Shown here one piece after another: positions 7,645-13,196 of a stretch of 32,841 nt of DNA (position 1 is the first letter of the stretch; each line of letters begins with the position of its first letter). The stretch is taken from assembly GCA_049599895.1 (NCBI GenBank), contig JBMYPC010000016.1, positions 1 to 32,841 of the forward strand, written 5' to 3'. The stretch is from Bacteriovoracaceae bacterium. GTDB taxonomy: Bacteria; Bdellovibrionota; Bacteriovoracia; Bacteriovoracales; Bacteriovoracaceae. Under the pieces are notes generated by a model. It was not told where the DNA came from. It saw only the letters and a list, made by a program, of their open reading frames with translations, and did not search any database. Both the position numbers and the translations under genes were made by a program.

Positions 7645-9006
7645 CTATTGATTTGAGGGAGCATCCTCTCTTTGAGAAAGAGGCTCAAAACTTGTGTAGG
7701 CACCAATGAATGCAAGTTTCACTGTCCCTGTTGAACCAGCACGGTTTTTCCCAAGGATCACTTCAGCAACACCAGGCTCTTTAGTGTCTTGGTTATAATA
7801 TTCATCTCGGTAAATAAACATCACAATATCCGCATCCTGCTCAATGGCACCAGATTCACGAAGATCGGATGTATTAGGACGTTTATTCGGTCTTGATTCA
7901 ACCCCACGGTTAAGCTGAGATAAGGCAATGACAGGACATTCAAGTTCTTTGGCCATAGACTTTAAGCTTCTTGAAATTTCTGCAATCTGCTGCTCTCTTG
8001 AAGGGTTTCCGGTATGAGATTTCATGAGCTGAAGGTAGTCGATGATAATCATACCAAGACCTTCTTCAGCTTTAATTTTTCGACATTGGCTGAGGATATC
8101 AAGAACAGTCGTACCACCATTATCATTAATATAAATTGGAAAATTGGAAAGCTTTTGCACAGCTGTTCCAATATTTCGAAGATCAGTATCGTTGAAATCT
8201 TTCATTCGAACTTTTGCCGCTGGAACTTTGGCTGTTGAGGTTAAAATCCTCATGGAAAGTTCTTCGGCCATCATCTCTAGAGAAAAGATCGCAATTGGAA
8301 GACCAGTGGTCTCAACTGCATTAACTCCAAAGTTTAGAGCAAGAGCTGTTTTCCCCATCGCGGGACGAGCAGCAAGAACAATAAGTTGACCAGGTTGAAG
8401 ACCAAGAAGAATCTTATCAAGGTCAGTATAGTTAGTGGGAATTCCAGCAATCTCACCAGGTTTTCGAGAAGTGTCCTCAAGCTTTTTAAGGTTTGCTCTA
8501 AGAGTTGAGTTAAGCTTGATCATCCCCCCACTTTTGGCTTCGTTAGTGAGTTTAAAAAATGAAGCTTCAACTTCTTGAATAAAGTCTTCTGTTTTTCCAG
8601 AAAAAGTTTTCCCAAGGTCTGCAACTCTTTGAGCTGTCTTTACGATATCCCTTAGACTTGATTTTTCTTTAACAATTTTTGCGTAATCATAGATATGAGC
8701 GGCTGAAGCCTGCTCTTCGACGATTTCGATGATAAATGATTGTCCGCCTAAGGATTCAAGCTGGCCTCTTTCAGAAAGCTTTGAACAAAGAGTGACGTAA
8801 TCAATAGGCTTATTGGCAAGCACGAGATCTTGAATCGCATCAAAAATCTTTCCATAGGCAGGATGATAAAAATCTTCCGCCACTAACTTAAGATCAGCGA
8901 TTTCATCAAAAGCAGAATTATCGATAATGAGGCAACCTAAAAGCGACTTCTCGGCCAAAAGATCGTGCGGTAGCTCTCTAGGCCCTGATTGAGTCGGTTG
9001 GTTCAT
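7645..9006 (-). CDS. dnaB: Replicative DNA helicase DnaB
   Basis: AARPAMGKT, FSLEM, IDYLQLM, LSQLNR and DLRESGAIEQDAD motifs; no intein visible. Confidence 0.98.
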   Translation of the reverse strand: MNQPTQSGPRELPHDLLAEKSLLGCLIIDNSAFDEIADLKLVAEDFYHPAYGKIFDAIQDLVLANKPIDYVTLCSKLSERGQLESLGGQSFIIEIVEEQASAAHIYDYAKIVKEKSSLRDIVKTAQRVADLGKTFSGKTEDFIQEVEASFFKLTNEAKSGGMIKLNSTLRANLKKLEDTSRKPGEIAGIPTNYTDLDKILLGLQPGQLIVLAARPAMGKTALALNFGVNAVETTGLPIAIFSLEMMAEELSMRILTSTAKVPAAKVRMKDFNDTDLRNIGTAVQKLSNFPIYINDNGGTTVLDILSQCRKIKAEEGLGMIIIDYLQLMKSHTGNPSREQQIAEISRSLKSMAKELECPVIALSQLNRGVESRPNKRPNTSDLRESGAIEQDADIVMFIYRDEYYNQDTKEPGVAEVILGKNRAGSTGTVKLAFIGAYTSFEPLSQREDAPSNQ

Positions 9007-9786: not shown

Positions 9787-10758
9787 TCAAGTTTCTGGGC
9801 CAGTTTTTGGCCTTAAAAATTTTCTAAAATTAATCCATCCATCAAAAACCCCAAAAAGCACCACAATCTGCCACGCCATCGTAACAGTCAGCAGCACTAA
9901 AAAGGTTCTTAAGAAGCTTCGAATCCGTAGGTAGTCCAATAAAGTTATATAAAGTCCAAAGCCTTGGAAGAAATAAAATAATCCAATTCCATAAAGAAGG
10001 TTGCTTCCTAAAACAATAAGAGCGTCACCCCAAATATAGTCCCCAGCAACCCTTAGAGTGAGGGCAAGAATTAAAGGCCAAAGCATGACATCGGGAACTT
10101 TAAAATGAACTAACTCTTTTACGGTATAAGGATAGGCGTGACGGATCTTCCAAAGAAGAGAATTACGTAAAACTAAAAATAATGTTGCCCAGAAAGTAAA
10201 AAAGATCGTGATAAAAATCACAGAGGGCATCCAATTGATAATATCTTTTGCAAAGGCCTTTGGATCACTGAGAAAGTCCTCAAGAAGCCGTGCCTGTTCT
10301 CCGCCAGCAGAGATGAGTTCTTTGTTTTGAAGTTTCATTTGCTCAAAAAGTTCTAGGACCTTTGCTTCAACAAGGCCTGTAATGGAGCCACCTTCAAGGA
10401 TAACAACTCCTAGAAGAAGGACAAAGATCACGCCCACAACAGCAAGGCCAAATGTCAGAAGGCCCTTTACGGGATGCCATTTCCTTAAAATGACTTCAGC
10501 ATTGAGAACCCCAATAACAGCCGAAAAGAAGTAAGCAAAAGGCATATAGGAAAGCGCAAGCATGTACATTGATAAAGCGACAGAAAAAAGCATAAAGCCA
10601 AGAACGAGAACTAAGGATTTTTGTCTTCCATAAAGAAGAACCGCAATGGTCAGAGGGACACTGGCAAACAATGAAAGCGGGCCAAAAGCACAAAGTGCCA
10701 TCGCAGTAAGCCCGAGGAAAAGAAGTTTACCGTTTGTGAGATTTTCTTGATCAATCAT
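9787..10758 (-). CDS. DUF2232/YybS-family multi-pass membrane protein
   Basis: Many TM helices, YFFQG and FGVFDGWINFRK motifs; usual position between rpsR and rplI. Confidence 0.8.
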   Translation of the reverse strand: MIDQENLTNGKLLFLGLTAMALCAFGPLSLFASVPLTIAVLLYGRQKSLVLVLGFMLFSVALSMYMLALSYMPFAYFFSAVIGVLNAEVILRKWHPVKGLLTFGLAVVGVIFVLLLGVVILEGGSITGLVEAKVLELFEQMKLQNKELISAGGEQARLLEDFLSDPKAFAKDIINWMPSVIFITIFFTFWATLFLVLRNSLLWKIRHAYPYTVKELVHFKVPDVMLWPLILALTLRVAGDYIWGDALIVLGSNLLYGIGLFYFFQGFGLYITLLDYLRIRSFLRTFLVLLTVTMAWQIVVLFGVFDGWINFRKFLRPKTGPET

Positions 10759-10772
10759 TTTCAGTACATATC

Positions 10773-10803
10773 AAAAAAAAAGGCCAGAGACATGCCCTGG
10801 CCT
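10773..10803 (-). terminator. Rho-independent terminator after rpsF-rpsR
   Basis: Minus strand AGGCCAGGG-catgt-CTCTGGCCT followed by a T run. Confidence 0.85.
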
Positions 10804-10825: not shown

Positions 10826-11452
10826 TTATAAGCTTTTTGCCGTGTAGTTTGAGATTGAACTTGCGATACCAATTGCTCTTGCTCTTTTAATCGCAGTTGT
10901 TGCAAATCTTTGGTGCTTACGGCTAACACCTGAAACTCTTGCAGCAGAGATTTTTCCAAACTCGTTAATAAGCCAGTTAAAAGTTTGAGGATCTTTCCAG
11001 TCCGCTCTTACTTTTTTAGCTGTAAACCAACAAGTTCTTCTCTTAGCAAACTTTCTTCTCGATTTTGCCATGTCTGAACCTTTCTCTTCCATTTCATCAA
11101 GAGCTGATCCAGAGTATTTTTTAGAATATGGACTTCTGTAAGTCTTAACAACGTCTTCAGCCTTAAGCTTAGGACATTTAATAATAAGGTGCTTAAGAAC
11201 AACTTCAGAAATTCCAAGACGTCTGTTGACTTCAAAGTTTGTATCAGCAGGAGCTGAGTAAACAAGAACGAAAAACCTTGCAGTTTCTTTTTTGTCAGCA
11301 GTAGCTTGGGCAAAACGAACTCGTCCCCAATCATCTTCGATAAGTACTTCACCACCTGTTTCAGTGATAGCACCTTTAATGTTCTCAATGGATTTTTTGA
11401 TGTTGTCTTCACCAGCATCATCAGCGTTAGCGATTGCTAATTCGTAGATCAT
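10826..11452 (-). CDS. rpsF-rpsR: Fused 30S ribosomal protein S6-S18
   Basis: The first ~92 aa are S6 (MIYE..., GGEV..DDWGRVRFAQ, ISEVVLKHLII). The last ~75 aa are S18 (CWF, DWKD, NEFGKISAARVSG, KHQR, AIKRAR). One continuous frame with a GGAGG SD. Confidence 0.9.
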   Translation of the reverse strand: MIYELAIANADDAGEDNIKKSIENIKGAITETGGEVLIEDDWGRVRFAQATADKKETARFFVLVYSAPADTNFEVNRRLGISEVVLKHLIIKCPKLKAEDVVKTYRSPYSKKYSGSALDEMEEKGSDMAKSRRKFAKRRTCWFTAKKVRADWKDPQTFNWLINEFGKISAARVSGVSRKHQRFATTAIKRARAIGIASSISNYTAKSL

Positions 11453-11456
11453 AGAT

Positions 11457-11500
11457 CCTCCTGGGTATTGCCTATTTTCCTATACTTGAAATAAGCGAGG
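11457..11500 (-). ncRNA. Candidate S6:S18 ribosomal leader (cis-regulatory RNA)
   Basis: 5'-CCUC|GCUUAUUU-loop-AAAUAGGC|AAUACCCAG|GAGG-3': hairpin, C-rich internal bulge, and a basal stem pairing with the SD. Confidence 0.65.
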
Positions 11501-12442: not shown

Positions 12443-12480
12443 TTGAACTGAAAACTGCCAGGATATATACTAGTATATAT
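12443..12480 (+). promoter_or_regulatory. Sigma70 promoter with overlapping 18-bp palindromic operator; likely leaderless transcript
   Basis: TTGAAC (12443-48)-N17-TATACT (12466-71); ATG 7 nt later with no SD; perfect palindrome ATATATACTAGTATATAT at 12463-12480. Confidence 0.7.
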
Positions 12481-12946
12481 GCTACTAAGAAAAGTCATTC
12501 AATCATTTAAGAAACACAAAGTCCCCTACGCTATAGTAGGTGGTCATGCCGTCGCCCTCCATGGTGCGGTTCGTGGAACGATTGATATTGATTTCATCAT
12601 AAAATGGAGCTTGAAGAACCTAAACGCTTTTGAAAAGGCACTTAATGATATTGGTCTGCAATCAAGACTTCCCATTACTGCGGATGATCTTTTTAACTTT
12701 AAAGACGAATACATTAAAAATCGAAACCTTATTGCCTGGAACTTCACAAACGCAAGTGATCCTTCTGAGCAAATTGATCTTGTTATTAACTTCGACTTAA
12801 CCAATGCTTCTGTTAAAAAAATAAAGATTCAAAATGAAACTTATAATGTCATCTCAAAAAAAGATCTTATAAGGATGAAAAAGATCTCAGCTCGAAAGCA
12901 AGACCTTCTTGATATAGAAGCTCTGGAGAGACTCGATGAAATCTAA
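12479..12946 (+). CDS. Small nucleotidyltransferase (DUF6036/DUF2204/AbiEii-like), putative toxin
   Basis: YAIVGGHAVALHG..RGTIDIDF Pol-beta-type motif and C-terminal LIRMK..SARKQDLLD motif. Confidence 0.8.
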   Translation: MLLRKVIQSFKKHKVPYAIVGGHAVALHGAVRGTIDIDFIIKWSLKNLNAFEKALNDIGLQSRLPITADDLFNFKDEYIKNRNLIAWNFTNASDPSEQIDLVINFDLTNASVKKIKIQNETYNVISKKDLIRMKKISARKQDLLDIEALERLDEI

Positions 12947-13196
12947 AGCATTACAGAAATTTAGTGATGAATATTTAAAAAATGCGAGAACATTAAGTCC
13001 GGAGCAAGTCTTATCTTTTTTAGAGGACTTTAGACTGCTCCATGGCCATTCAGACGAAATCAAAAAATCAAAGCTTATTAGTATGAAAGTTCCTCAAAAT
13101 CTTCTTAACGCTTTCAAAAATAAAGCTCAACTTGAAAACATCCCCTACCAAACCCTTATAAAAAAGCTGATGACTGATTATTTAAAGCACTCTTAG
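12936..13196 (+). CDS. Small protein with C-terminal ribbon-helix-helix (CopG/BrnA-like), putative antitoxin
   Basis: KLISMKVPQNLLNAFKNKAQLENIPYQTLIKKLM matches the BrnA/CopG-type pattern; 11-bp overlap with the NTase gene and a GGAGAG SD. Confidence 0.75.
   Translation: MKSKALQKFSDEYLKNARTLSPEQVLSFLEDFRLLHGHSDEIKKSKLISMKVPQNLLNAFKNKAQLENIPYQTLIKKLMTDYLKHS

Follow-up and report, generated by a model that had tools for sequence, protein, structure and literature searches.

The ribosomal proteins S6 and S18 normally are separate chains which pair on the platform of the 30S subunit, and fusions between two core ribosomal proteins are rare. The window, i.e. the whole analysed stretch of 32,841 nucleotides from a Bacteriovoracaceae bacterium, contains both in what appears to be a single gene. 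Is this a genuine fusion, what would its product do, and how did it come about?

A single reading frame for S6 and S18

A sequence-only reading of this DNA had claimed one frame of 208 codons in which S6, a linker and S18 follow each other. This was borne out by the open reading frame and by Pfam; the strand, unstated before, is minus. The fused rpsF-rpsR gene (bS6-bS18; 10826..11452, minus strand; also identified by NCBIfam) starts with ATG at 11452 and ends with the stop codon at 10826-10828; the 208 codons contain no internal stop. Pfam Ribosomal_S6 (PF01250) matched residues 3-92 with 54.4 bits (cut-off 27) and Ribosomal_S18 residues 147-196 with 52.9 bits (cut-off 21). The NCBIfam model for S18, TIGR00165, scored 49.1 bits, above its cut-off of 38.75, and that for S6, TIGR00166, scored 33.6 bits (E 3.5e-8), under the equivalog cut-off of 42.9. 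Judged by its sequence the S6 half is divergent. The Pfam match and the alignment of a predicted model delimit a bS6 domain of residues 1-92 (11177..11452, minus strand). Pfam, NCBIfam and alignments place a bS18 domain of the zinc-free form at residues 133-208 (10829..11056, minus strand). The linker peptide quoted in the earlier reading is indeed present between them. Family searches of the whole assembly (97% complete, 266 contigs) returned the fused ORF as the sole S6 match and the sole S18 match. The claim that neither ssb nor priB separates the two halves also held, as the two SSB-family matches of the assembly both are on contigs other than that of the fused gene.

Downstream follow, all on the minus strand, a gene for a DUF2232 membrane protein (9787..10758; Pfam), rplI for L9 (9050..9721; Pfam and NCBIfam) and the dnaB helicase gene (7645..9006; Pfam). 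A terminator-like hairpin with a T run, a consensus match only, separates the fused gene from that for the DUF2232 protein (10771..10803, minus strand). Among 25 relatives listed, the next gene mostly appears to begin about 20-40 nt after the fused gene. Considering the hairpin here and the short gap in most of the relatives listed, the fused gene may have a transcript of its own in the source genome. A conserved terminator 3' of the fused gene was considered and discarded; the scan, positive in 32 of 66 relatives, was too loose. No sigma-70 promoter was found by a promoter scan. Within the fused gene a 137-codon ORF is open in an alternative frame (11008-11421, minus strand), probably a shadow frame. 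Elsewhere in the window (12479-13196, plus strand) a gene for a DUF6036 nucleotidyltransferase is followed by a CopG-antitoxin-like gene, a pair resembling toxin-antitoxin modules.

Could the single frame be an assembly error or the accidental loss of a stop codon in one genome? Such events deserve consideration: many singleton gammaproteobacterial 'fusions' have linkers which look out of frame and retain an S18 start. A protein search with the fused product gave 334 matches. All 120 of those listed carry both domains, and the non-self ones are 46-59% identical; their names include Bacteriovoracaceae and Halobacteriovorax, e.g. Halobacteriovorax sp. GB3 (WP_273870392.1). Because these orthologues carry both domains at such distances they independently confirm the fusion. 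Hundreds of fused orthologues with conserved linker residues refute the artefact, to which we assign practically no probability. As for reads over the linker, which the sequence-only reading had proposed to check, little was gained, and no RNA run was listed as holding the gene. One Logan contig spans the 901 bases with 0 differences, possibly derived from the source sample itself, and no independent Logan run bridged the whole linker. Comparison of the homologous sequences supports the view that the single-chain S6-S18 is encoded by a natural, inherited fusion gene.

Linker and S18 half of the fused protein

The linker has two dissimilar halves. Conservation, pLDDT and structural overlay mark the first half, residues 93-116 (11105..11176, minus strand), as the C-terminal tail of S6. 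A predicted helix (98-104) is followed by a conserved motif with P108, S110 and G115, which are invariant in 120 close homologues. The AlphaFold2 pLDDT of this half is 82-89, and up to about residue 115 the predicted model overlays the tails of solved S6 chains. The S6 proteins of relatives in which the genes are split terminate a few residues past a shared Y-x-x-P motif. By conservation and pLDDT the second half, residues 117-132 (11057..11104, minus strand), is acidic, variable and predicted to be flexible (mean conservation 0.47, pLDDT 63-70). In the fused proteins it ends in D-hydrophobic-x-K-D-R, which includes D127-M128, and the same motif is located within the N-terminal extension (44-67 residues) of split S18s. 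Residues 117-132 are best read, from this shared motif, as a remnant of that extension. The linker then is S6's own C-terminal tail plus a shortened N-terminal extension of S18 and contains no new sequence.

Counted between the core of S6 and the first cysteine of S18, 72 fused loci have 35-54 residues vs 71-89 residues, summed over both proteins, in 8 split ones; the fused span is at least 17 residues below the split span. Because it is shorter, we infer an in-frame deletion, not readthrough of a stop codon. After ssb/priB had left the operon, such a deletion would have taken the rpsF stop and the spacer together with about 20-40 codons of the low-complexity N-terminal extension of S18. The earlier remark that the linker reads as coding sequence gained support from 13 close pairs. 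Of 172 linker differences 128 were at third codon positions, and codon differences were 102 synonymous vs 41 non-synonymous. The third-position excess indicates that selection acts on the protein sequence. By these counts the linker is constrained coding sequence under purifying selection.

Does the chain remain whole? It might be synthesized in one piece and then be cut in the acidic loop, such that the ribosome holds separate S6 and S18. Residues 117-132, variable and predicted to be flexible, would be protease-accessible; however, a conserved cleavage-like motif was not detected, the segment varied in length and sequence over the 72 loci, and the conserved part, residues 102-116, matched the path of the S6 tail. 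Cleavage therefore seems quite improbable to us. Even less should be expected from an internal start at M128 or M121, by which free S18 would be produced beside the fusion. M128 is situated just before the S18 core with a purine-rich stretch ahead of it, the source linker has two in-frame ATGs, and an ATG is present in 30 of 72 fused linkers. Yet only 35% of 120 homologues have a methionine in the M128 column. In a scan reaching back at most 40 codons from the S18 cysteine, 35 of the 72 fused genes had no ATG, GTG or TTG; therefore they cannot produce S18 alone from a usual start in that stretch. The D-M/V/F motif of the split relatives lies inside the S18 extension, far downstream of the real start, and pairing with the anti-SD was computed as -4.4 and -3.1 kcal/mol for the two internal candidates vs -10.3 kcal/mol at the true start. 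The uninterrupted frame points to a covalent 1:1 S6-S18 product.

In the S18 half all of 36 homologues share W152, K153, K189 and R192. They align with Y23, K24, K60 and R63 of the 75-residue PDB chain 11bq_R, which we take to be E. coli S18. PMC4647458 links these S18 residues to the contact with S6 and to binding of the leader. The zinc site is different. C141 and H180 are kept and the other two cysteines are lost. The CxxC/CxxH zinc motif was found in 0 of 72 fused loci and 0 of 120 fused proteins, and CxxC is kept in 6 of the 8 relatives with split genes and in 10 of 12 outgroups; as kin are not independent, this pattern reflects few events. Two genomes, G206 and G392, are split, yet their S18 is zinc-free as in the fused forms. 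bS18 exists in C+ and zinc-free C- forms. With two of four zinc ligands missing the fused S18 resembles the latter; unlike the C- paralogue of zinc starvation it is the sole S18 of its genome. Zinc-free (C-) forms are mentioned in PMC3353972.

AlphaFold2 with 144 alignment rows gave a pTM of 0.85 and a mean pLDDT of 89.9, with 36 rows a pTM of 0.61 and a poorly resolved S18 part, and the Atlas model of the fused protein has a pTM of 0.78; a textbook pair may reach such scores through its likeness to solved structures. The predicted S6 domain matched S6 chains, best 9h90_f with Z 12.1 and rmsd 1.6 over 104 aligned residues, i.e. it has the S6 fold. Among 60 listed of 120 matches no PDB chain covered both an S6 and an S18 domain. 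The models predict a compact two-domain fold; in it the first half of the linker is ordered and follows the S6 tail, and the second, acidic half loops out.

The mRNA leader and a function for the single chain

Upstream of the gene we identified a candidate S6:S18-binding leader (11457..11500, minus strand), in which a short helix pairs with the SD, and a hairpin and a bulge with CC immediately ahead of the SD are present. The definition of this motif, S6S18CBM, was taken from PMC3854524 and PMC3895269. A CC at most 2 nt from the SD was present in 68 of 71 fused leaders vs 17 of 221 other SD-bearing genes of the source genome. A hairpin opening at the conserved motif was possible in 58 of 71 vs a shuffle mean of 24 and maximum of 34, and the hairpin positions show several pair types each. 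A 3-pair SD helix can form in 57 of 71. An automatic consensus fold of the leaders gave only 3 pairs with little covariation, and the leader of the source genome itself was no more stable than shuffles (z -0.6). Rfam, which may hold no such family, returned no relevant leader match up to E 10. According to PMC4647458, the effector requires both proteins and their interface. The SD-pairing helix, the hairpin and the CC bulge are S6S18CBM-like and kept in nearly all fused genomes; unlike the known two-protein effector, the putative effector here is one polypeptide. From the conserved leader it would appear that the single-chain S6-S18 exerts feedback on its own mRNA.

In E. coli the bS6:bS18 heterodimer is encoded by rpsF-priB-rpsR-rplI and in B. 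subtilis by rpsF-ssbA-rpsR; a structure is PDB 1G1X. The fused protein shares with it both folds, the gene order, the downstream rplI and the S18 residues Y23/K24 (here W/K), K60 and R63. In contrast to the two gene products of the heterodimer it is one chain from one frame. Its sole-copy status and the kept residues suggest that in the 30S subunit it is bound to the central domain of 16S rRNA. We consider it very probable that S6 and S18 in this one frame yield a tethered S6:S18 pair which binds 16S rRNA and represses its own translation. The product would fold as such a pair and bind 16S rRNA on the 30S platform, and repression would operate through the retained mRNA leader. Pairing of S6 with S18 would become intramolecular and 1:1, and feedback control would read one protein instead of a two-protein complex. 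Such a ready-made tethered S6:S18 may serve in studies of 30S platform assembly and of feedback.

Another consequence concerns the ends. In E. coli the C-terminus of S6 is the site of glutamylation by RimK, and the N-terminus of S18 that of acetylation by RimI. Unlike the heterodimer, the fused chain has neither a free S6 C-terminus nor a free S18 N-terminus. A class-wide single-chain S6-S18 would mean that the free ends of the pair and their modification are dispensable. A loss of RimI as a result of the fusion was considered: the cut-off of TIGR01575 (RimI) was passed in 3 of 42 genomes, one of them fused; GNAT paralogues blur the rest.

The S6 tail has a further known role. In F. johnsoniae an S6 C-terminal extension (W100, R103, K107) contacts the 3' end of 16S rRNA, and in Flavobacterium the bS6 tail region helps to conceal the anti-SD in a pocket of bS21, bS18 and bS6 (PMC7797042). 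When the predicted model is aligned with 7jil_k (Z 11.3, rmsd 2.4, 107 aligned), the first half of the linker runs over the stretch taken by this extension. However, an SD preceded 38% of 1658 long ORFs of the source genome vs 6% at a control position (ORF starts are crude). The source genome uses SD sequences normally and has no full anti-SD block, and the idea that the linker blocks the anti-SD was abandoned as unsupported. A loss of bS21 as companion of the fusion was likewise ruled out by bS21 matches in 41 of 42 genomes searched. The source genome gave no bS21 match in the 97% complete assembly, which should be taken as not found rather than absent.

Distribution and history of the fusion

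How widespread is the fusion? A survey of 301 genomes of the phylum gave full-length matches in the source family and one sister family only, and all 12 outgroup loci inspected directly were split. The class sample comprised 238 Bacteriovoracia genomes, of which 228 matched; the 10 unmatched ones are less than 90% complete. About 217 of the 228 are fused. This count includes 72 loci inspected directly and 4 at contig breaks; the rest was counted by a single strong match. No internal stop was seen in the 150 matches listed in the class survey. Eight genomes from five genera of the source family are cleanly split (G206, G392, G327, G375-G378 and G382). All 8 have an own S6 stop codon and a downstream ATG, and 7 of 8 an SD-like run. 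The sequence-only reading had named split genes in close relatives as evidence against the fusion. They do exist in these genomes; they affect its history, not its reality. Outside both counts are G174, G448 (contig end) and G309. In G174 (locus L077, C61:10600-12900) the linker has an in-frame TAA with no start after it; the related P0127 is fused, and the TAA is probably a consensus error. Genomes with two matches were explained by contig breaks (G446, G458, G450) or a truncated fused gene (G333). The fused genome G388 (L155, C102:1-2244) has a second, distant S6 match, perhaps on a contaminant contig. In each of G375, G376 and G378, two full-size secA genes pass the cut-off of the family.

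A species tree was calculated from five proteins of 28 genomes (4085 columns, quick LG+G4); it leaves out G327 and G377, for which SecA only was available, and the composition of G249 is biased. Beside each of two large fused groups it places one split clade, and the fused, reduced genome G249 branches deepest. By AU tests a common clade was rejected both for those family members that are fused (p 0.0039) and for the split ones (p 0.0043). As neither group holds together as a clade, the state has changed repeatedly. ssb/priB between rpsF and rpsR is already missing in most outgroups examined and in all 8 split relatives, and an rpsF operon without them is consistent with PMC3895269. The loss of ssb/priB preceded the fusion.

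We lean towards several origins of the fusion within the class because most split S18s look ancestral, with zinc motif and extension, and because the linker signatures of the two big fused groups differ, K-T-P-F-S-K-x-x-x-G-S vs Y-x-N-P-N-H. Considerable weight, short of preference, is due to a single basal fusion in the order, after which clean fission or gene replacement would have occurred at least twice. By parsimony the fewest changes are three, and one gain plus two losses satisfy this number; gains alone require at least four. Also in line with a single fusion are the fused state of the deepest-branching G249, the zinc-free S18s of the split G206 and G392, and the S6+S18 gene tree, which joins the six zinc-motif split forms (support 81) that the species tree separates. 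However, a long extension and the four-ligand motif, the latter present in 10 of 12 outgroups, are retained in 6 of the 8 split S18s. Fission would thus call for the return of two cysteines, 20-40 codons and an SD, and the differing linker signatures also do not fit. When the possible sequels of a single origin are separated, later fissions retain that tentative standing, and replacement by gene transfer is improbable. The best candidates for true fissions are L021 (G206) and L146 (G392), both split and with an S18 which lacks all three cysteines. G249 (L022, C2:47500-53000), of the same order, has 0.9 Mb, is rated 96% complete and possibly is a reduced symbiont. It has the shortest fused linker (35 residues), and rplI apparently follows directly after the fused stop without a DUF2232 gene. 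Fused and split sister genera allow to test what advantage the fusion brings.

A profile search of 1.84 billion representatives returned at least 150 proteins, and 41 of those listed match both halves. Ten of the 41 are Bacteriovoracia-like; several others look like artefacts, among them singletons which were rejected. A gammaproteobacterial 'family' of 22 two-domain proteins was also dismissed, being mostly frameshift-type singletons; only P0184/P0273 count. Repeats thus support two unrelated fusions, the P0188 family (8 clusters) and the pair P0184/P0273, whose S6 domains branch away from Bacteriovoracia. By this branching the same fusion is present in at least two unrelated lineages. The domain order of these database records is the same. 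In the P0188 group (P0188, P0392-P0398, P0171, P0198, P0245) the N-terminal arm of S18 is gone, and the S6 tail runs directly into the S18 core. The zinc motif is absent in the P0188 group (0 of 8) and in P0184/P0273; the singleton P0178 keeps it. In the Atlas, two-domain clusters have 61 and 55 members, with a phylum known for only 9 and 3. A speculative and rather doubtful extension is that the fusion was repeatedly selected, arising more than once within the class and also in unrelated phyla, nearly always with a zinc-free S18; the tether would take the place of zinc in keeping S18 folded against S6, and a one-protein feedback switch would be the gain. If true, Bacteriovoracia with their fused and split sister lineages would be a natural experiment on the reason for separate ribosomal chains and on the zinc economy of the ribosome.

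The searches of open literature listed no paper on a natural S6-S18 fusion, and term look-ups in PMC3353972, PMC9297842, PMC2837039 and the first 300,000 characters of PMC7203096 gave no passage on one. The fusion apparently is undescribed there, widespread and recurrent. Databases have recorded it in part. Both domains already figure in some IMG names, e.g. 'ribosomal protein S18/ribosomal protein S6'; NCBI names the protein S18 only and IMG often S6 only. With such single names S6 or S18 can escape marker-gene pipelines.
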